35,829 bases of DNA from Paraspadella gotoi (Eukaryota > Animalia > Chaetognatha). The notes under the pieces were generated by a model. That model searched no databases and had not been told where the DNA came from. It saw nothing but the letters and a program-made list of their open reading frames with translations. Shown piece by piece: positions 6,701 to 33,490 of the stretch. The stretch covers positions 1 to 35,829 of the forward strand of contig JBJCIZ010000694.1 of assembly GCA_051294375.1 (NCBI GenBank), read 5' to 3'. Made by a program: the position numbers and the translations under genes. The first letter of the stretch is position 1. Each line of letters begins with the position of its first letter.

Positions 6701-6962
6701 GGCCCTTGCATAAGTTCATCCCGCTTATAAGCATGTCTAAACCAGGTGGCTCATTGAGTAAAGCCATCAGCTCATGACCACTAAGTACCGGGTTCAATCC
6801 CAAACCGATACCGACCCTGTGGGAAGCGTGAGGACAGCCGTAAACCACCTTTGGGGCGTGGAAACCCCTCAAGCCTGGTTCCAAGCCCAGTACCCGTTCC
6901 ATGGCATGGTTGCTGACGGGGCAAAGAAGTTACGGGTAGTAGTTTTCAGCCCACTTAGCGCC
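6701..6962 (+). mobile_element. 262-bp tRNA(Met-like)-head + degenerate twister element (family C)
   Basis: A-box-like TGGCTCATTGAG, CTCATGA loop, B-box GGTTCAATCC. Twister remnants at 6819-6897: GA-GGA, TAA, P3, P4 CTGG/CCAG, L4 TTCCAAGC. TTATTC lies on both flanks (6695-6700, 6963-6968). Confidence 0.65.
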
Positions 6963-7013
6963 TTATTCATAATTTTTTTTATTATTGTCATTAACTAATA
7001 AAAAATATTAAAC

Positions 7014-7270
7014 TGTGGCAGCAAGACTTAAAGCTGCCTCACTGCTGTCCGTCCTCAGCCTCATCTCAATGGCTGAGCAGGCTAAATCATCTCATTCCAT
7101 CCGTGCGTCCCGGGTTCAATCCCTGGGTATCCCGGTTCTGGCTTAAATGTGACGGTGCCGGTATAAACATGCCAGTGACAGGAGGCGGTCACTGAGGGTC
7201 CGCAGCCCCTACGCCAGTTGGTGAGATACCCCGCGCCCCGGGTATCACAGGCTATCCTCCCGTTGCCATA
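7014..7270 (+). mobile_element. 257-bp tRNA-head + twister element (family A) with 4-bp TSD
   Basis: Starts TGTGGCAGC, ends GTTGCCATA, and AAAC is duplicated at 7010-7013 and 7271-7274. 5' hairpin GGCAGC/GCTGCC, A-box-like TGGCTGAGCAGG (7070-7081), B-box GGTTCAATCC (7113-7122), 3' hairpin GTGAGATACCC/GGGTATCAC. Confidence 0.85.
7138..7217 (+). ncRNA. Type-P5 (circularly permuted) twister ribozyme
   Basis: P5 CTGGC/GCCAG; P2 ATGT/ACAT; GA at 7151-52; T1 CGG/CCG; short P1; UAA at 7164-66; T2 GC/GC; P3 CAGTGAC/GTCACTG; P4 AGGG/CCCT. L4 is TCCGCAGC, with one conserved A replaced by C. Confidence 0.85.
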
Positions 7271-7981
7271 AAACACATATTTATAAAAATATAACAGAAA
7301 AAATATTATTAATTTAAAAGAATAGTATTTGGAAAATCTTTCAAAAATACAATTATTTTCTTTTTTTTTTTTTGAGGCAATATTGATAAAAATTTTAATA
7401 TTTTTAAAAATTTACATATAAATATAATTTATAAAAAGTAAAATAATCATTCAGCTATGTATAATTACTATAATTAACCATAAAATAAATAATTTTAGTC
7501 TAAAATTTTTTTATTCCTAAAAACAAGTTATTTTTTAACCGGAAGTGGTACGCCAAATAAAGTGGCGTGGAAAGTCCATAAATCTCTACCTGAGAAATTT
7601 TTCATTGTGATATTCGTTTTTTTCATTGAAATTGGAATGAGAAACTTTGCAAGAACCAACAACTTTTCTAAAGTGGGATATTTTTGGGAGCCCTAATATT
7701 AATATAATATAATATAATATAATTTCTATAAATGAAAAGCAAGTCAGAATACACTAGCTCGCTCACGGCGTAACGGTAAAATCCTCAATAAAGACCTTTA
7801 TGGATTTTCTTTGTTCCGGTGGCGTTGGATAGCCCAAACACTGCAGTTTCAGAAATCATCCATGGTTTTTGTAATATTTACTGCGCTACTGGTGCAAAAA
7901 TTGCTAAGAACCAAAATTATCAGAAACCGCTTCATTCTTTCTGATTTTTTTTTAAGCGCGGAGCGACATATCTGTTCTCAG

Positions 7982-8102
7982 GTTCTCGGCTTCGAAGTTG
8001 ACTTCATCAACTCTGTCCAGTTTTCGAACCACACCGGCTACGGGACCTTCAAGGGCCAAATTCTGGGCGCTGATCAACTTGGCGAGCTTTACGAAGGATT
8101 AG
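7982..8102 (+). CDS. PDXK: Pyridoxal kinase internal exon ([40 protein letters not shown])
   Basis: Diagnostic [11 protein letters not shown] motif of pyridoxal kinases. Acceptor ttctcAG ends at 7981 and donor GTttga starts at 8103. 121 nt, phase 0 to 1. Confidence 0.95.
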
Positions 8103-9650
8103 GTTTGACGTGAGCAGCAGTTTTCCTTGTTATTTTTATTACCTAAAAATTAAATTTGATTGCAATGGTTTTTTCCAAGTTGGCGTAAAATAGAGATGCG
8201 CATCGTTCAAATCGAAGTTACGATCAAGATTCCTTAATAGTTCACTTCTATTCAAAACTGCATAGACAAGGCCTCAACAAATTATATCAATATGGGCAGA
8301 TTTTGAAAGTGTGGCGTCTTGGGAAGCCAACGGAGGTAGAGCGCGATCGAAATTCCCATTTTATCATGCCCAAAAATGGTATTTAAATGGACTGGTCAGG
8401 CCGTTTTTTCCCTTTTCCCAAAAAACCTGCTAGATCTTTTGTAAAATAGAACAAATCATATCAGTATGGTTTCGGATAGCTTATTGTCTTCTCTCCAAGA
8501 TAATTAAAAGAAAAGTTTAAATTCTTTCAACCTTGAATGCTTGATAAAGCAATCAAATGAACTTGTTTTTTAAGTGAAAACTGCATCGTCAAGCCTTCAT
8601 TTTTTTTCTAAAACCATCGAAACAAACTATTGATTTTACTGTTTTAGGTAGAGCGTGGGGATAAATTTAGCCTAATTATATAAAATTTTATGCAAATACG
8701 AATGAAGTCCGTTTATCGCACGGAAAAACCGTTTTTAAGTGCAATCCGGGCCGTATTTAAAACTGGTTATAGAGGTTATCTAAGGAGGACTTCGATCGAA
8801 AAAAAGGATTGATCATGCGCGATCCGGGCCAGATAAAAAAAAATTAAAATTTACCCTACGTTTAAAGTTTTGGAACGGTTCGCGGTCTGTTTTTAGGCAA
8901 TGCCCGACTACAGATATTCATTAAACCAGGGTTAAATTTTTCATAATGATACAATCAATATCATTTAATTATAGTTTTTTTTTTCCTATTATAGTTACAA
9001 ATAAATAAATCATGGTATTTATCGAGATTAATACGTTTTAAAGGTCTATGGGAAAATGAAACAGTTCGCGGTCAGTTTTTGATGGATTTATAGTTAAATT
9101 TAATAATACTAAGCTTTTCCAGGGCATATTGGACATGGAAGAGCAAGTTGAAAAAAAAGTATGCAAGTTAAAAAGTATGCATACTAGAGCGTAGTGAAAG
9201 TTAAGTACAGAAATTCTAAAAGTCAATTATGAACAACATACCATCAGTGAACATTAATTTATAAAAAAATATAATTTTATGTTTTTTAATTTTCGCAGTA
9301 GGCTATATTTATATTTAGTATACTATCCTTATAAAATCGAAAAATATCAAAATAGGCTCTTTTTAATTTTGATTGCAGATTTAAATTCCTCGTCAAAAGT
9401 TGATAAAATAAAATATAAATCATTTTTAAAAATTCTTTCATTAAGTGGGTTTAATATATAAAAAGTTAATTTTAAGCTTAAAATATAGCTTTTTCTAATT
9501 TTTGACCCACTTAATGAAGGAATTTTTCAAAAAGAGTTATATTTCTTTTTATCAACTTTTTATGACATCCAAATCTGCAAAAAAAATTTAGAAAAAACTA
9601 TGGAAATTTTAACATTTATTGGATTAGTACTAGTATAATGCATGCTTTTT

Positions 9651-9914
9651 TCCAACTTGCATACTTTGTTCCAACTTGTATACTTTGTTCCAACTTGCAT
9701 ACTTTGTTCCACCTTGCATACTTTGTTCCAACTTGCATACTTTGTTCCAACTTGCATACTTTGTTCCAACTTGCATACTTTGTTCCAACTTGCATACTTT
9801 GTTCCAACTTGCATACTTTGTTCCAACTTGCATACTTTGTTCCAACTTGCATACTTTGTTCCAACTTGCATACTTTGTTCCAACTTGCATACTTTGTTCC
9901 AACTTGCATACTTT
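9651..9914. repeat. 19-bp minisatellite (TCCAACTTGCATACTTTGT) x about 14
   Basis: Head-to-tail near-perfect units with no spacers. Confidence 0.97.
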
Positions 9915-10248
9915 TTAGATGATTACTGCTAAATTATCGTAGGCAGATATGACATTTTAAGTTAAGTACTACGCGTAGTTCAAATTCTTATTGGATCAAA
10001 ACTAGTTCGATTTTAACCGAAAGTTGATCGGTTCGAAGAGCGATTTTTTGCCATAACTTTTGAACGGATTATCCGATTTTGATGAAATTTTGCATGGAGA
10101 TAATATTTTTCATTTCCTCTCGATCGATACCATATTCATTAAAAAATACTAAATAGTTTAGAAACGATGCCTATCCCCACGTAAAAGTACAAACGTTTGT
10201 CAAACGTACGTATCTTCGATAAAAATAAAGAATTGATTTCAATTTCAG

Positions 10249-10331
10249 TTGCCAACGATTTACATCGCGATTACACTCATATCCTCACCGGTTACATTGG
10301 CTCCACGTCTTTTCTTGAGAAAGTCGTCGAG
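10249..10331 (+). CDS. PDXK: Pyridoxal kinase exon (VANDLHRDYTHILTGYIGSTSFLEKVVE)
   Basis: Y-x-x-(I/V)LTGY motif. tttcAG acceptor, GTagaa donor. 83 nt, joins the previous exon in frame (G+TT = Val). Confidence 0.93.
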
Positions 10332-10579
10332 GTAGAAATTAGCTATCAATTTATTTATCATTTAATTTATTTACCATTTATTTACTATAGTTATTGAGCA
10401 TTTATTAACTTTTATTAACTTTTTCTCTTAGTTTTAAGAAGGTGATGATAACTCATAATGGATGAGATTTTTCCATATTTTTATCGACGCAATCGCTTGC
10501 GCTTGCGACAATTTTGTTACGATGGTCCTCATGAAGCTTTTAAAAGGCGTCGTCGTCAGTGTCGTTCCAAATAATAGAT

Positions 10580-10800
10580 TATGGCAAAAGCCGGGTTGCC
10601 TGTGATGCCCATTGGGATGGGTCATCTCACTGTTGGCTTTGGGGGCTTCCGACCCTAAGTGCCGCCTCCAGTCACTGGCGCGGTTACTCTAGGACGGTAT
10701 CGATTTGCCAACGCAGAGGGAAGTCGTTAGGACTGTGGATGGAACACAACGCCTGGGATGGTGTGTTCCCCCTCTGAGGCGGTGTGAATATACCGCCACA
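10580..10800 (-). mobile_element. 221-bp twister element related to family A, with 4-bp TSD
   Basis: The minus strand starts TGTGGCGG and ends TTGCCATA. AGAT is duplicated at 10576-79 and 10801-04, and an empty-site-like sequence ATAGATCGCCTTTTT occurs near 26704. The 3' half aligns with 7171-7270. Confidence 0.85.
10632..10712 (-). ncRNA. Degenerate type-P5 twister ribozyme
   Basis: P5 GTTGGC/GCCAAC; T1 CCG/CGG; UAA; T2 GC; P3 CAGTGAC..GGCACTT; P4 AGGG/CCCC; L4 TCGGAAGC. P2 has mismatches and the catalytic G position reads T. Confidence 0.7.
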
Positions 10801-11001
10801 AGATCGCCTTTTTATCTCGCCAGACGGGCTAATGCTTAAGCCGTCTTGGCCGTGATAATCGTCGTCGTCGCTTTTTTTACAATAGGAAAAGTGTATATTT
10901 GTAGGAAGCTAAAAATTTAGATATTGCTCGTCATCATCAAGATCTTTAAAAATCACACGTTTCATATGGATTTATGGTATAATGGCAACTAATAATGGTA
11001 C

Positions 11002-11043
11002 TATGGTGGACTAAAATCCACCAACCGTTCAGCGGCCATTGGT
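11002..11043 (+). mobile_element. Family B 5' fragment truncated by another repeat
   Basis: TATGGTGGACTAAAATCCACCAACCGTTCAGCGGCCATTGGT runs directly into the GGTTCCGC-TACAAA repeat end. Confidence 0.7.
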
Positions 11044-11351
11044 GGTTCCGCTTACAAACGGCGAATTTAGCACAAAAAAAAACTTTTTCCAATATTGTTC
11101 AGTCGTTACTTATAATATTAATTTAATTTGTACCGCAATACAAATCGGGCCGAACTAAGGATTGGTTAAAATCATCTCCACCTGCTTCTAATGATAAATT
11201 CTATATTTAGGAAAAAAAATCATGTCCATTTTCGTCCATTTTCACTTTCGTCTTCTGATTTGAATTCCAAGGAAAGTTGAGAAAATCTTTTTTCTTTGGA
11301 AATCCGTTCTTCCTTATCTTCTTTACCTCTGGGTTAATTTTTTACATATAT

Positions 11352-14984: not shown

Positions 14985-15160
14985 CATGGTGGACTAAAAT
15001 CCACCAACCATTCATCAGCGGCCATTTGTGCTGGAGGCAAGTCATTCGCCTCCCAACCCAAACGTCCCGGGTTCTAGCCCGGTGGTCGCCTTGCAGCCCC
15101 TGTAACATGGTGTTACAGCCTGATCCGAAGCTCAGGGACTGCTTATATTGAACAGTTCTT
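14985..15160 (+). mobile_element. Family B element with an internal deletion of the twister cleavage-site half
   Basis: Same hairpin, tRNA head, P3, P4, L4 and P5' as the 24.8-kb copy, but the roughly 28-nt segment carrying GA-CGG and UAA is missing. Confidence 0.8.
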
Positions 15161-15426
15161 GTTTTCTGTGTGTTCTTGTTCTCTGTCTCTCTCTCTCTCC
15201 CTTACTCACAAATTTAATTTCTTTTCCCTCACTTTCTCTCTCTCTCTCTCTCTCCCAAAGTCAATTTGGAAAACATGAAAACTGTAAAATTTCAAAAGTA
15301 CTAATGAAGGCTTGAATAAAAGCCGAAACTTGTCTGTACAATAAAAATAAAATCGTTGCATGTATCTAAGACTCGATCTTTAATTTCAAATATCTAAAAA
15401 CACAATGAAAGAAAGTTATAGGACTA

Positions 15427-16989: not shown

Positions 16990-17283
16990 TTAAATCCTCG
17001 TTGCCCAAACGATGACAACGGCGACGACGCCCAGCAAGACGAAACGAAAGACTCCGACAGCAAAAGCGACGCCGCCGCACTTCCCTCCTAAAGCCGGACA
17101 GCCTTTGCAGTTGTCGGTGCAAGCATCAAACTTCTGATCATTAACGGTAACTCCGAAGCAGCAGCCGTCGTTATACTGTTGTCCGTTTTTCTTGCAGTAT
17201 TCGTTGGACTTGCAATGGGAACCATCTTCAGCGACGCATAGGATGAACAGCATCAACGGCAGAAAGAAGAAAAGCGAATTCAT
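16990..17283 (-). CDS. Small single-exon Cys-rich membrane/secreted protein (97 aa), nested antisense in a PDXK intron
   Basis: ATG at 17283. Hydrophobic signal-like N-terminus MNSLFFFLPLMLFILCVA, eight Cys in the predicted mature part (C-C-CC-C-C-C-C) and a C-terminal hydrophobic helix. GC-rich island with GTC/GGC codon use like the PDXK exons. Confidence 0.6.
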   Translation of the reverse strand: MNSLFFFLPLMLFILCVAEDGSHCKSNEYCKKNGQQYNDGCCFGVTVNDQKFDACTDNCKGCPALGGKCGGVAFAVGVFRFVLLGVVAVVIVWATRI

Positions 17284-17703
17284 TTCTTTTATCAAATTTA
17301 AAAAAAAAAAAATCGCGAAAGAAATCAATTTTATTTTTTCAAATAAAAAATACTTGGGTCTTTATGGTTGAATTTTTCGGTGATAGAGATTTTTAAGAGT
17401 TTATTTTAATTTTTGTTTTGTTTAAAAAAAATTTATCAATTTGCAAACCCAACAATACGCTTATTGAAGAAAGCGATGCCTTTTTATTTAGTTTCGCTTT
17501 GATTGATAGAATCATTTGTTTTCCGTTAAATATCTTGCCGTGCTCTTCCCCGCAATCAGCTGTTATGTAAGCTAAAGTTTCAGTTTAATCTTTCACAAGA
17601 CTTTTATCTTCAATTCAAACACGTGTGTAAAAGGTTCCGCGTACAAACGTTGTATTTAGGAAAAAAACGACTCTTTCCAATATTGTTCAGTTGTTACTTA
17701 CAA

Positions 17704-23782: not shown

Positions 23783-23957
23783 GTTGTCCGTCATCTGAAA
23801 TCAAAGAACTCGTCCCTCGTTTACGTCTGCGACCCAGTCATGGGCGACGACGGCGTCATGTACGTTGACTCGGCGCTGCTTCCCATCTACAGAGACGTCG
23901 TCCTCCCTGTCGCCGATGTCGTAACTCCCAATCAGTTCGAGGCCGAATTATTGACTG
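23783..23957 (+). CDS. PDXK: Pyridoxal kinase exon ([58 protein letters not shown])
   Basis: YVCDPVMGD and [10 protein letters not shown] motifs. Atypical gtgAG acceptor, GTcagt donor. 175 nt, phase 0 to 1. Confidence 0.95.
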
Positions 23958-24109
23958 GTCAGTAATAGTAATAGAATATCGATTTCGAGGACAAAATTAA
24001 TTAAAATTAAATTTAATTTTCCTAATATTGAATTGAATAAGCGTTGTTATTTAAAAAAGCTAAAGAATTGTGTCAGATAAGTTTATCACGCACGATACTT
24101 AAAATTCAG

Positions 24110-24226
24110 GCGTAAAAATCACAGACATGAAATCGACGTGGAGAGCCGTCGATTTTTTTCATTCCAAAGGAGTTGGAACCGTCGTCATTTCCTCGACTAA
24201 CTTGGGTGGCGACGAGAGATCTTTGT
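24110..24226 (+). CDS. PDXK: Pyridoxal kinase exon (GVKITDMKSTWRAVDFFHSKGVGTVVISSTNLGGDERSL)
   Basis: H-x-x-G-x-x-TVVI(S/T)S motif. ttcAG acceptor, GTgagt donor. 117 nt, phase 1 to 1. Confidence 0.93.
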
Positions 24227-24313
24227 GTGAGTTTATTCAATTTAAAGACTCTTAAATTATGTGTGTGATCACCATATTGACTTTATCGACTTCGTCCCTC
24301 CTGATTTCCTTAG

Positions 24314-24481
24314 TAGGACTGGCAAGTCGCCTCTCGCCCTCTTCGACGATCCCCTCGAGACTCAGCGTCTCGATTCCCAAACTGGAGGCTCATTTCACGG
24401 GGACGGGCGACCTCTTCGCGTCTCTCCTCACAGCCTGGTTGCATCACCACCCCGGAGAGCTCAAACTCGCCTTGGAGAAAG
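24314..24481 (+). CDS. PDXK: Pyridoxal kinase exon ([56 protein letters not shown])
   Basis: Ribokinase-family catalytic GTGD motif (FTGTGDLF). ccttAG acceptor, GTgaga donor. 168 nt, phase 1 to 1. The following exon was not recognised in the window. Confidence 0.95.
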
Positions 24482-24677
24482 GTGAGAAGAACCGGGTCTT
24501 ATTTAAATACAGCTATTTATATAAGTAGTAGTATAAGTGGGTTTTTTGGGGTTTTTTTAAATTATAGATAGCAGACTGTCATATTTAAAATATTTATACT
24601 TTTTAAGTGATTAATGATAAAAATATATAAAATATACTGATTATATTTAATAATAGTATTAATTAATTACAATTTTT

Positions 24678-24942
24678 TATGGTAAACAGAAATGTAATAA
24701 ATACAAATATTGAAGAGACAGTAATTATTGTTGTGTTAGTGACAGAACCGTTCAATATAAGCAGTCCCTGAGCTTTGGATCAGGCTGTAACACCGTGTTA
24801 CAGGCGAGTTAAGCGCCCCGTCCCTCTTAACTGCTTGGCGGCCACCGGGCTAGAACCCCGGACCTTTGGGTTGGGAGGCGAATGACTTGCCTCCGGCACC
24901 AATGGCCGCTGATGAACGGTTGGTGGATATTAGTCCACCATA
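24678..24942 (-). mobile_element. tRNA(Gly-like)-head + twister element (family B), best-preserved copy
   Basis: The minus strand starts TATGGTGGA-ctaata-TCCACC. 72-nt tRNA-like head at 24838-24909 with perfect acceptor stem GCGGCCA/TGGCCGC and a CTCCCAA anticodon-like loop. Putative end TTACCATA at 24678; the flanks do not match (TTTT vs ATAT), so that boundary is uncertain. Confidence 0.75.
24759..24836 (-). ncRNA. Type-P5 twister ribozyme (family B)
   Basis: P5 AAGCAGT/ACTGCTT; GAGG-GA-CGG; UAA; CTC-GC; P3 CTGTAACA/TGTTACAG; P4 CTGA/TCAG. L4 is TCCAAAGC here and TCCGAAGC in the two sister copies, which restores T1 CCG/CGG. Confidence 0.82.
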
Positions 24943-25233: not shown

Positions 25234-25706
25234 TATGAAATTGGTACAACCAATATAAAAATTATCCATTCATTTAATAAATAAGCTATCTTTCCCCTGA
25301 CTTTGGACAGGCTTTGGTGGTTTAAGGCCTCCATCACTCTTACAAGATAATGACATAGCAGGTCCCTGCAAGCTTTCAATCAAGACTCTCTCACAGTCTC
25401 GTTTATTCACTCCCAGAGTACCTGGCTTCCTTATCAATGAAGTGGTATAATATTTCAAAGAATGTTTCAATTGTATGAAAAGACCACTCCCTTAAATATT
25501 AGATCGGGGAATACTTATTGTACTCCGCACTCGCATCAAAATACAAGGAGCTGAATTTTATGAAATTGGTACAACCAATATGAAAATTATCCATTCATTT
25601 AATAAATAAGCTATCTTGCCCCTGACTTTAAACAGGCTTTGGTGGTTTAAGGCATCCATCACTCTTACAAGATAATGACATAGCAAGTCCCTGCAAGCTT
25701 TCAATC
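25234..25706. repeat. About 150-bp direct duplication (25234-25383 and 25559-25706)
   Basis: ATGAAATTGGTACAACCAATAT...GCAAGCTTTCAATCA occurs twice. Confidence 0.85.
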
Positions 25707-28700
25707 ATATATATTATTTTCCTGCATTCTCGTTACTTTACTCCTTGATAGGTTAACTTTTCAGAGAATTCTTTAACGTGTGACAAATATACAAATATAT
25801 AATTATATTGAAGTTTAATTTTTTCTGATAAATAGCTTTAAAAGAACCCTCACCTTGTGTTAAATAATAACGAGAGAATAGCAATCATTTTTAAAGTGTG
25901 TCGATCTTAACATGATTTGCGATTCACGATTAGGATTACTTAATATAAGGAAAATGGTACAGAAGCCATCAACGAAAGTGATACTGATAGTAAACATGTA
26001 AAACATAGGTTTAGGGTTATTTTTAATCATTAAATTATATATTAAGCTTGTAAAAATGATATATCTTATATGATTTAAATTTTTGCTTTAACAATTTAAA
26101 GTTTCATATTAAAAAATTAATTAATTTTAAAAAACCCTGTTTTTTTTGCTGGGTTTTTTTGGGTGGGTTTTTTAATGCCAACCCTGAGTAAGTGAGTATA
26201 AGAGTAATTAATAGCAACTTCAAGTTTGCGAAGCATTTACTTTATCTCAAAATAAAATTTTGAGGTGATCACGACACAAGTATGAAACAAGTAAATAATA
26301 CAGCGTTGACTTTCTGGTCAATGGTCACCGTCTTTCCTGTTAATCAAATGACTACAAAAAGTATAAATCAACATCAGCTGCATTATCTGGCTAATTATTA
26401 GTCAAAATGACTTAGTATTTTTACAATTTATTCATATTCAAACATGACCCATGGACTTATTCCCTTGTGACTTTTAAAGTTAACAAAATATAAGATATCA
26501 AACATCATTCATTTCAAAGAATTTAATGGTGATGACGATTTAGGATCGGCTCAGCTTCTTTGTGACGTTGTCGTCTGCATCAGCGTCACGCTTTTTTCTT
26601 ATATAGTTATAGACTGGGGCTTACAATTGTTTTTTATTTTTTTTTTATTGTAACGCTTTTGCGCATAAGTGGCTTCGTCGTCGTCGTCGTTGTCGTCGGT
26701 ATTATAGATCGCCTTTTTTATGATTAAATTTGGGTGTATGAAGCTGAAAATTTATATACAGCTTCTCATCATCGATGTGCTTAAAATTGAGTCTGGACAG
26801 TTATTAAATATGTTTTGTTTACGTTTTATCAAAACAAACAAATTTTCTCTCTTTTATTCTCATATTTCTTTTTCTCTCTTTTCTCTTTTAATTACATGTC
26901 TCTCTCCCTCTCTCTTTTCCCTAGTCACTGATTCATAATCATAGCCATAGGGGAAAGAAACGAGTCTGCAGCTGGCTCTGCAGGGGCTTATTCTTTTTCT
27001 CTCTTTTTTCCTGCTGCTTCTGCTGCTGCCTTTTGAATTCTTTCTTTTTTTTTTGGGTGCCTCTGCTGCAGAAAACGATTTGGCTTCTTTCTCTCTCTCT
27101 CTCTCTCTGATTAATTTTTTTTCTTTAAAAACTATTATTATCGCCATTTATTCCCAAATTTACATCCGAGATTTCCGTGGATTTTTTTTCCTAAATATTC
27201 TAAATATCAATCTGAATAATATTTTTTTAAAATATATATTTACTTTATTATTTTATTTTACTTTACTTCATTTTACTTCACTTTAGTCTTTACTTCACTT
27301 CGTCAGTCTGATTTAAGTTTCACTTTTTTGTCTGGGAATGCTGACAGTGTTTAGAGAGGTCGCATTCGATCAAACTGCTTGCTTATGCGGGCTAAAAGTA
27401 AAACAAAAGTACCTTCAATAATGTCTCTCCAGACTTAGCACTTGCTAAAAATTAAACTTGAAAATAAGTTATTTTACTGTTTTATTGAAAGAACCCCCTC
27501 CTTGACCTAGCGGAGAGGGAGAAGACGTCGGGAGAGAAACTGGACACCTGAAACCGGGATACAGGAGTGGCGGCGTAAGTTTATAAGTTTCTATCACTTG
27601 GAGTTTGATATTTAATGGTACCGATTAAATAAAATATAAAGCATATAGATTTCATACAGACAATAATGAATATTAACTAATTAATCAAAGCAAATAAGTA
27701 ATAAATAACAAATTATGAAGAATACCATAAGTGTCATTAGGCTCCCACAAAACGTTTATTATTTTAGAGAAGAGTCCCGTTTCAGAGCAAAATCTGGAAT
27801 GACGCGCAAAAGAGAGAAGAGACGAATGTCGATATCTCCTTTATTAAAAGAGCATCTGAGTTACGGTCGTCTGGACTTTAACATTATATTTATTATTCTT
27901 TATTTTATTTTTTTTTAATTTTTTTTAATTTTATTTTATTTTTTATTTTTTATATTTTTCTCGAATTAAGATTTTTTAGTATCAAAATTTGTCGTCAATC
28001 CAAAGTTTTTAATATTTTAAATATCTTCTGAAAGCCCTTTCAAATCTAAAGAGAATGACGATCTTACGAATACTGTAGTATAATTTTAACTGGCAGCTTT
28101 AAGTTAAGACACAATGAAAAATGGCGTAACGTTACTGTTCGTGCATAAAAAAAATTCACTGTTCAATATTATTATTTTCTTTTTATTTTTTTGAAACGTT
28201 ATAGTTTCATATGTTGATATCCAAAATATCCAATGCAAAATCTTTTTTGTTTTTATAGATATGACTGAATATAGGGTGAAAGATGATAAATTTTTTTAAA
28301 AGTTACTTATTCATATTTATTCATAGGAATTGTAATAAAAAAAAAAAAAAAAATAATAGTACTAATAGTTAGTGTTATGTCTCAAAATAGTATGGAAAAA
28401 AACCTTATTTAAAAATTCGATTCGGGGAAGTGGGGTAACTAAGGCTTCAATGGGCATCCTCCACGCGATTGTTCTCTCAAATAATTTTTTTTTATTTAAT
28501 ACATTTGAAAGGGAAAAAAGAAATTTGAATGCAGGTTGCAGAAAGGGTACAGATAATCTGGACTTTTGAACATGATAACCATGACTTTTATATCTTGTGA
28601 AATGGGGGCAGTAAAGAAATCTAAAAAATTTCATCATTAAGTCAGTCAATGAACCCTTTCAATGGGCTATTACGAGAAATATTTTTTTCTTAATTAAAAT

Positions 28701-33281: not shown

Positions 33282-33490
33282 TATGGTGGACTAAAATCAC
33301 CCGTTTCATTGCAGCGGCCATTGGTAGCCGAGGCAAAGTCTTCGCTCCCAAAAAAGGTCCCGGGTTCTAGCCCGGTTGTGCTGTGCAGTAAGAGGGACGG
33401 GTAGCGCTTAACCCGCTGTAACCAATGTGGTGTTACAAGCTGATCCGAAGCTGGGACTGGCCTTATTATTGAAACGTTATCTGTCATCAA
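33282..33490 (+). mobile_element. Family B element, indel-rich copy (twister about 33385-33460)
   Basis: TATGGTGGACTAAAATC start, GCGGCCATTGG head, GAGGGACGG...TTAACCCGC-TGTAAC...TGTTACA...CTGATCCGAAGCT. Confidence 0.75.

Follow-up and report, generated by a model that had tools for sequence, protein, structure and literature searches.

Likely solo LTRs with a predicted twister ribozyme and tRNA-type promoter motifs in the chaetognath Paraspadella gotoi

Ends, flanks and copy number of the two elements

Two short related elements, here E1 and E2, lie in the analysed window, a stretch of 35,829 nt from Paraspadella gotoi (contig JBJCIZ010000694.1). E1 (7014..7270, + strand; 257 bp, 58% GC), likely a solo LTR, reads TGTGGC...GCCATA, and sequence reading and flank comparison place the two copies of its 4-bp duplication (TSD), AAAC, at 7010..7013 on the left and 7271..7274 on the right. 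E2 (10580..10800, − strand; 221 bp, 57% GC) is a decayed copy with the same termini, set between AGAT at 10576..10579, on the 3′ side of the element's sense strand, and AGAT at 10801..10804. The coordinates, terminal letters and exact 4-bp duplications of the original prediction were all reproduced on re-reading the sequence, as was the absence of a tail in either element. The ends, described there as TRTGG...CCAYA, are present but not symmetric: since E2 lies in the opposite orientation, the twister sense gives 5′-TGTGGC...GCCATA-3′ for both copies, which open with TGT and close with ATA. The first letters are TGTGGCA in E1 and TGTGGCG in E2. Terminal inverted repeats are just 8–9 bp long, imperfect and asymmetric; as RNA, the element ends could pair over these 8–9 bp, always with a G-U in one orientation. 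The general claim that twister elements have such ends holds for E1 and E2, but not for five other twister-like elements of the window. A third copy of the E1/E2 type was found in the window neither by nhmmer nor by BLAST, and 0 of the 14 window ORFs scanned (41 listed) gave a Pfam match.

Left and right flanks agree at both elements solely for k = 4 among the lengths tried (k = 1–20). Given local base composition, a chance match of four bases has probabilities of 0.012 and 0.0046 (product ∼6e-5, for a TSD count that rests on two copies), and random pairs match at an empirical rate of 0.0093. Two of the 80 TRTGG...CCAYA pairs in the window have a 4-bp TSD, namely E1 and E2; with ∼0.7 expected by chance, this motif-plus-TSD scan is weak when taken alone. 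The boundaries are set independently of the TSDs, by an alignment of E1 with E2 that extends to GCCATA (74.5% over 102 columns) by the TGTGGC start common to both and, at E2, by the steps in contig depth described below.

A paralogous module of the host repeat in which AGAT occurs just once (26679..26718, + strand) had been put forward as an empty site. The match does cross the junction (83%, E 2e-5), but it covers 41 columns only and the host repeat is modular; the best local alignment puts 26680–26786 against a second host-repeat module, beyond the insertion. Judged by these alignments, the paralogue, as a possible empty site, lends moderate support to the E2 insertion. As an observation of its own, a pyridoxal kinase exon has a best identity of 74% to fish proteins.

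Contigs of three public sequencing runs were aligned to E2 only, and copies of the E1 subfamily lie outside this count. The depth ratio of ∼10^4 in the three runs indicates a very high-copy family. Contig depth steps sharply at 10580 and 10804, and hundreds of contigs display a sharp, fixed, untailed end with unrelated flanks. Loose ends at 10578–10580 run into unrelated AT-rich flanks (agreement 0.40–0.49), with counts that are suggestive of a preference for A-T targets. Constant internal sequence, which would collapse into few contigs, follows neither end among the loose-end rows listed; among the 15 of 45 joints listed, none skips the element or connects tail to head. Many other copies carry ∼30–38 nt near 10778 that E2 lacks. 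Pattern scans of the metagenome_contigs, viral_contigs and genome_contigs collections returned 0 further copies.

Promoter motifs and the predicted twister

The tRNA head had been described as starting tens of nucleotides inside the element. This holds for E1, where a Pol III box A match (7070..7081, + strand) lies 56 nt inside and a box B match (7113..7122, + strand) sits in a T-arm-like hairpin; E2, however, is devoid of box A and has a box B with one mismatch. ARAGORN found 0 tRNAs, and no complete cloverleaf surrounds box B of E1. Three further hairpins are predicted on the + strand of E1. One is 5′ terminal (7014..7041), and E2 has a predicted hairpin at the equivalent position with different paired letters. 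The 3′ arm of the second (7054..7077) overlaps box A. The third, near the 3′ end (7221..7248), is common to E1 and E2 with one double-sided change. Close to the 3′ end of E2, a run of four T (10586..10589, − strand) is a possible Pol III terminator, and E1 has no such run there. On its + strand, E2 also has a stretch that resembles 5S box C (∼10725–10760), but a 5S reading was dropped since Rfam gave no 5S match.

A type-P5 twister with P3 is predicted in E1 at 7147..7210 (+ strand). It would consist of P2 (7147–7150/7167–7170), GA (7151–7152), T1 (7153–7155/7200–7202), T2 (7171–7172/7205–7206), P3 (7173–7179/7188–7194) and P4 (7195–7198/7207–7210), with an 8-nt self-complementary linker (7156..7163, + strand) replacing the full P1 stem. 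The P5 order P2′-GA-T1′-P1-UAA-P2-GC-(P3)-P4 with two pseudoknots was recovered in E1 by a custom descriptor. The sole departure is C at 7203, which is A in the Rfam P5 consensus; this is the best score in the window, the next best having three departures. Cleavage is predicted at U^A (7164..7165, + strand), placed according to the twister model of PMC5408937, leaving 151 nt of E1 on the 5′ side and 106 nt on the 3′ side. In E2, the descriptor and covariation point to a decayed twister (10641..10703, − strand) in which T1, T2, most of P3 and P4 pair, the breaks being in P2, GA, one linker pair and P3. The assignment is based on descriptor and covariation and not on Rfam, which made no twister call on E1 or E2 at gathering and gave no RF02684 match at E up to 10; the 58-position RF02684 model appears to be without P3. 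Rfam scans gave no hammerhead match in either element, and on visual inspection HDV-like and hammerhead readings of the common 3′ half gave way to the twister.

Every pair of the drawn structure forms in E1, and 90.8% of 65 cells are paired over E1 and E2. Four pairs change on both sides between the two elements, against none in slid controls with 27–46% paired; four such changes were reached by 29 of 500 shuffles, in a comparison of two sequences under a structure drawn from E1. The two subfamilies are 75% identical, and compensatory changes distinguish them in T1 and P2. At the sites where E2 deviates from the twister motif, most contigs carry another letter, in 3/3 runs read. This two-sequence covariation argues for a constraint that would act at the RNA level on the twister of the family.

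It also bears on a quite improbable explanation, namely that E1 and E2 are ordinary Helenus solo LTRs that once captured a twister-bearing SINE-like unit, the ribozyme now being a passenger that plays no part in the cycle. Other tRNA-headed twister-like repeats of the window lack LTR ends, Kojima suggests that Helenus arose from a SINE inserted into an LTR (PMC10886601), and the core has one departure in E1 and several in E2, all of which would suit a passenger. Against it stand the compensatory changes in T1 and P2 at 75% identity, and the breaks of E2, which are not common to most copies.

Mode of insertion and a possible cycle

Integrase-type rather than SINE-type insertion, as originally predicted, is supported, because the TSD is of 4 bp in 2/2 copies, the end is fixed and untailed, and the termini TGT...ATA are CsRn1-like. 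A tRNA SINE would begin at its tRNA head, carry a 3′ tail and have a longer TSD of variable length; here box A begins 56 nt into E1, neither copy is tailed and the TSD measures 4 bp. Target-primed reverse transcription of a SINE or of a Penelope-type non-LTR retrozyme, with 4-bp duplications that arose by chance, is a very improbable origin for E1 and E2. Precedents exist in the non-LTR twister of Perere-3 (PMC8501958) and in animal retrozymes described as non-LTR (PMC7229834; bioRxiv 10.64898/2026.07.22.740005). Nevertheless, both TSDs together would arise by chance with a probability of ∼6e-5, the ends are fixed and untailed, the predicted cleavage site lies mid-element whereas that of Perere-3 adjoins the TSD, and animal non-LTR retrozymes are tandem with longer TSDs (PMC4918200, PMC7229834).

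Movement as DNA is unlikely. E1 and E2 would then be non-autonomous, MITE-like members of Ginger2 or of a different DDE family that makes 4-bp TSDs, and would have captured a tRNA–twister unit. Ginger termini read TGTNR and its TSDs are of 4 bp (PMC2836005), solo-type copies alone are seen, ∼10^4 copies are MITE-like, and the loose ends hint at an AT target bias. Yet the Ginger alternative, raised in the original prediction, is disfavoured because Ginger TIRs measure 40–270 bp (PMC2836005), against 8–9 bp, imperfect and asymmetric, here. Ginger1 and Ginger2 target CCGG/CCGT or RTATAY (PMC2836005), and neither is found here, the AAAC and AGAT targets (n = 2) not fitting the RTATAY preference of Ginger2. 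Moreover, compensatory changes in a twister pseudoknot would not be selected under DNA transposition.

E1 and E2 are best read, at a probability of roughly 70%, as solo LTRs left by a Helenus-type TRIM, a non-autonomous LTR retrotransposon whose insertion would be the work of a Gypsy integrase, probably one from the CsRn1 clade, and whose LTR carries the predicted twister behind a tRNA-type promoter. That they are solo LTRs of a TRIM with a tRNA promoter had been proposed before; the idea gains a precedent in Helenus (PMC10886601), which the original prediction did not name, but no two-LTR copy is seen. Neither PBS nor PPT adjoins E1 or E2, as expected of solo LTRs, and the window likewise has no visible helper element. 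Further observations weigh against the LTR reading. The T4 run before the 3′ end of E2 could stop Pol III ahead of any internal region; T runs occur at a comparable place in Helenus LTRs (by eye, supplement of PMC10886601). The hinted A-T bias is at odds with CsRn1-like elements, for which PMC2582038 reports no target bias.

Alternatively, the 255-bp unit could be the entire element, with no internal region, copied from tandem or circular twister-cut RNA and inserted as a free LTR by Gypsy integrase. Improbable as this is, the window and the loose-end rows listed show no internal region, the twister is apparently conserved across a very large family, the RNA ends pair over 8–9 bp with constant G-U orientation, and the plant retrozyme model permits solo-LTR cDNAs from circles (PMC4918200). 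Conversely, such a unit lacks a primer site and a second-strand primer, no head-to-tail joint occurs among the 15 of 45 joints listed, and an internal Pol III start would miss the first 40–50 nt unless a second copy is present.

Under the preferred LTR reading, transcription by Pol III would begin within the 5′ LTR, a few bases upstream of box A. The transcript of a two-LTR parent would be cut at the identical U^A of both LTRs, yielding an RNA of exactly one LTR plus the internal region, in which R is not repeated. In line with what is modelled for plant retrozymes, a host ligase would close the circle. Reverse transcription by a helper Gypsy RT would be primed by a tRNA at the PBS, and integration of the cDNA by the integrase of the helper would generate the 4-bp TSD. 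LTR–LTR recombination may give rise to solo copies, as may short cDNAs. More speculatively, the palindromic P1 linker might let both twisters of one two-LTR RNA pair; this dimer is not required, because twisters can cleave without P1 (PMC5408937).

If true, twisters would have a second genomic job, in a tRNA-promoter LTR, LTR-type retrozymes would be present in animals, and Pol III-driven TRIMs might obtain copyable RNA without a repeated R region in this way. A 64-nt motif for which both a cut site and a dimer interface are predicted makes this cheap to test.

Comparison with known systems

The single link between twisters and retrotransposons listed by the literature searches concerns a non-LTR element. 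The twister T-variants of Schistosoma Perere-3 (PMC8501958) likewise lie in an animal retroelement and have a reduced P1, but Perere-3 is non-LTR and protein-coding, with the twister at the 5′ end adjoining a variable TSD. Descriptions of LTR retrozymes come from plants and involve hammerheads (PMC4918200), and animal retrozymes are described as non-LTR. In common with the reading proposed for E1 and E2, plant LTR retrozymes combine a ribozyme in an LTR (300–400 bp) with 4-bp TSDs, a Gypsy helper, solo LTRs and a proposed circular RNA (Cervera 2016, PMC4918200); their ribozyme, however, is a type III hammerhead, and that account, in the part considered, mentions no tRNA promoter, whereas here a P5 twister is predicted in an animal. 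A twister and a tRNA-type promoter in an LTR would extend plant-style retrozymes to an animal.

CsRn1-like Gypsy elements have 4-bp TSDs and termini altered to TGT...AAA or TGT...ATA (PMC2582038), and the 5′ integrase motif of CsRn1 is TGTGGYG (PMC3601003, Table 3). A CsRn1 helper would be marked by a TGTGG start, TGT...ATA/AAA ends and a 4-bp TSD, all present in E1 and E2. CsRn1-clade elements differ in being autonomous, with a tRNA-Trp PBS and gag-pol (PMC2582038, PMC3601003).

There is a close likeness to Helenus (TRIMp3; Kojima 2024, PMC10886601), which has boxes A and B in an LTR of 100–320 bp, a TG start, an occasional ata end, 4-bp TSDs in animals, a Gypsy-type PBS, common solo LTRs and no functional tRNA. 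Correspondingly, both boxes are found in E1, the TSD is of 4 bp in 2/2 copies, and the ends are LTR-type at 221 and 257 bp. By eye, five bivalve Helenus LTRs in the supplement start with tgtggc, and Helenus-6_SaGl ends in ata. Differences lie in the predicted twister that follows the tRNA part here, and in the two-LTR form known for Helenus; the copy number of the present family may exceed the largest Helenus listed (5575 LTRs). In the part of PMC10886601 covered, twister has 0 mentions, and ribozyme and hammerhead appear in one reference only.

Helenus-2_SyJa and Helenus-2_SyUm, from gall-wasp inquilines (supplement of PMC10886601), share with E1 a TGTGG start and tRNA boxes in the 5′ part followed by a ribozyme-like motif. 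By eye, a hammerhead-like core with stems, unremarked by the author, lies behind box B in an E1-like layout. Their LTR is 277 bp long with a 4-bp TSD, a full two-LTR form exists, and a tRNA-Trp PBS is given for SyJa. Unlike E1, they would have a hammerhead in place of a twister; they also end in ACA, and the complete element is known with its PBS and PPT. It is tempting, if doubtful, to propose that the family is an animal twister LTR retrozyme: a Pol III-driven, Gypsy-mobilised TRIM of ∼10^4 copies, whose LTR twisters might pair via the palindromic P1, which would confine favoured cutting to the full two-LTR RNA and give a unit-length circle. Together with the hammerhead-like motifs of two wasp Helenus LTRs, it might then belong to a wider class of ribozyme-swapping TRIMp3 elements.

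Insertion ends and target duplications

The two related repeats E1 (7014-7270, flanked on both sides by AAAC) and E2 (10580-10800, inverted relative to E1 and flanked on both sides by AGAT) read TGTGGC...GCCATA in a shared sense. Their 3′ 102 columns align with 74.5% identity, reaching the final base. [quoted passage not shown] A motif scan of the window finds 2 of 80 TRTGG...CCAYA pairs with a 4-bp TSD against ∼0.7 expected, by itself weak evidence; what gives the TSDs weight is that homology and contig depth fix the element boundaries. E1 has inverted ends of 9 bp (two G-U positions) and E2 of 8 bp (three). TRTGG...CCAYA ends, once ascribed to the twister elements at large, hold for E1 and E2 but not as a general rule: E0, E3, E4, E5 and D11, the other twister-like elements of the window, lack such ends and TSDs of that kind.

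Nine sequencing runs of one organism cover the region as contigs; in the three analysed here, 5950, 1897 and 315 contigs align to 10460-10880 (E2 plus flanks). In run X1 the summed depth of ∼1.2 million inside E2 is ∼1.1-1.2 × 10^4 times that of the flanks (101-112), a factor that is not a copy number, and depth edges lie at 10580 and about 10804. Loose contig ends at 10578-10580 (at least 140 in X1 and at least 127 in run X5) lead, among the contigs listed, into unrelated AT-rich flanks (agreement 0.40-0.44); the element therefore has no tail, and the anticipated absence of poly(A) or simple repeats is borne out. Eight contigs have a loose end at 10801 (agreement 0.5). Counts of the listed loose ends hint at an A-T bias beside the element end, a signal open to alignment-extension bias, and none of the 15 joints listed of 45 skips the element or joins tail to head. 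Contigs departing from E2 at 10778 number 90, 70 and 12, and several rejoin it after 30-38 additional letters. Thus, E2 is a deletion derivative of a ∼255-bp unit, near the 257 of E1, and the absent piece resembles, by eye, the box A hairpin of E1. At seven positions the contig majority in all three runs disagrees with E2; these include, by eye, its breaks of the twister pattern, which marks E2 as a decayed copy.

In CsRn1-like Gypsy elements the TSD is 4 bp long and the termini are altered to TGT...AAA or TGT...ATA (PMC2582038), with the integrase motifs TGTGGYG (5′) and MSYYAMA (3′, which leaves out the T; PMC3601003 Table 3). Both E1 and E2 fit such ends, oriented as an LTR requires. Ginger transposons (TGTNR ends, 4 bp TSD, TIRs of 40-270 bp, specific targets; PMC2836005) share the TGTNR start and the TSD length, but E1 and E2 have neither the TIRs nor the specific targets, and a Ginger origin is disfavoured. 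The feature is real, and given 4-bp TSDs, a fixed untailed end and CsRn1-like termini, the insertion is integrase-type, as first proposed. The suggested empty-site paralogue fares less clearly: a candidate at 26679-26718 matches over the insertion junction (41 columns, 83%, E 2e-5), but the host repeat is made of modules, and in the best local alignment this region falls against a second one past the insertion, so that the support is moderate.

Predicted promoter and twister

E1 comprises a predicted 5′ hairpin (7014-7041), a second predicted hairpin overlapping box A at 7070, box B at 7113 (a Pol III motif match), a predicted twister (7147-7210) and a predicted 3′ hairpin (7221-7248), followed by the element end. 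It contains no tRNA cloverleaf. Rfam scans call neither E1 nor E2 a twister; the twister was placed with our own descriptor of the P5 permutation, built on the Rfam consensus line and the twister fold. In the window, E1 is its best match with one departure, the next best has three and E2 four; in ten shuffled windows the descriptor matched once at one departure and once at two. In the E1/E2 alignment, 90.8% of 65 cells are paired, with four both-sided changes (in P2, pseudoknot T1, the linker palindrome and the 3′ hairpin), versus 27-46% and zero in slid controls; 29 of 500 shuffles reach four, for a comparison of two sequences under an E1-derived structure. Folded as whole elements, E1 has z = -1.8 and E2 z = -4.4, and a T4 run precedes the 3′ end of E2.

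In the E1 twister, P1 is shrunk to an 8-nt self-complementary linker (4/4 pairs), and E2 retains a palindromic core different from that of E1. Closing the linker as a hairpin costs a computed 2.9 kcal/mol, versus -10.9 kcal/mol for two-copy pairing. Three further twister-like copies of the window have 6-nt palindromes there; in E0 and the second D11 copy the palindrome is short by one pair. The linker recalls the palindromic tetraloops of amphibian hammerheads that cleave as dimers (PMC7229834). Twisters might likewise pair through it, a hypothesis only, since twisters work without P1 (PMC5408937).

Neighbouring repeats and genes

The window is AT-rich (∼32% GC) and crowded with short repeats. 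GC-rich E0 (6701-6962) ends 51 bp ahead of E1 and has GGC...GCC ends, box B at 6791 and, at 6826-6890, a P5-like twister that has decayed (Rfam E 1.6); its flanking TTATTC repeat is a possible 6-bp TSD, found post hoc. A second tRNA-headed family (33282-33490 (+), 24740-24941 (-), 14986-15180 (+) and a fragment at 11003-11045 (+)) has its start at ATGGTGGAC, a hairpin at the 5′ end, and a twister-like motif in which P3 is present and the linker is short and palindromic; its window copies show no convincing TSD, and the 14986 copy lacks the twister 5′ half. Two copies 96% identical and 325 bp apart (25234-25382 and 25559-25707) each carry, on the minus strand, a motif resembling Twister-P5 (25296-25338, Rfam E 0.18), the first with a palindromic linker, and are possibly a tandem non-LTR retrozyme-like repeat. 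Elsewhere lie a 19-bp tandem array (9639-9914, 14.5 copies, 97% matches) and long inverted repeat pairs at 168-436/2372-2640 (269 nt, 91%) and 931-1212/12563-12844 (282 nt, 89%), which are probably MITEs or dispersed repeats of other kinds. A pyridoxal kinase gene has spliced exons within 23783-24482, the first at best 74% identical to fish proteins, which makes an animal host probable. An ORF at 16990-17361 (-), without Pfam match, encodes a hydrophobic stretch and, after it, a short segment rich in cysteine, an arrangement resembling that of small secreted peptides.

Probable Helenus-type TRIM, possible LTR retrozyme

The most likely reading, at roughly 70%, is that E1 and E2 are solo LTRs of a Helenus-type TRIM carrying a predicted twister. 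Helenus elements are TRIMs whose LTRs hold tRNA boxes and frequently occur solo, and which in animals have TSDs of 4 bp and Gypsy-type PBSs (PMC10886601); three Helenus features are found here, as read from solo copies. By eye, five bivalve Helenus LTRs in the supplement begin tgtggc and one LTR ends in ata. The proposed solo LTR of a tRNA-promoter TRIM has a precedent in Helenus, with its two-LTR parent postulated: neither PBS nor PPT adjoins E1 or E2, as expected of solo LTRs. No helper element appears among the 14 ORFs scanned of 41 listed (0/14 with a Pfam match), and pattern scans of metagenome, viral and genome contig collections for further copies were empty.

In the available text of PMC10886601, twister is never mentioned and ribozyme occurs in a reference title only; supplement parts 1 and 5-9 of 11 show no twister by eye. 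Titles and abstract starts of the open-licence literature give no twister in an LTR element, the sole twister-retroelement link being the non-LTR Perere-3 (PMC8501958). A retrozyme-like working of the family, as originally envisaged, is inferred; it would follow the cycle modelled for plant LTR retrozymes (PMC4918200). In Cassandra, LTR terminators are read through in tandem arrays (PMC7215508). The wasp elements Helenus-2_SyJa and -2_SyUm have a 277-bp LTR starting TGTGG, a TSD of 4 and internal regions of 485 and 487 bp, with a tRNA-Trp PBS displayed for the former (PMC10886601). Behind box B, both LTRs appear by eye to hold a hammerhead core with three stems and complementary loops, which the available part of that paper does not mention. 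If true, the two families would represent complete LTR retrozymes of animals, with both LTRs and the E1 layout, and would be the best support for the retrozyme model.
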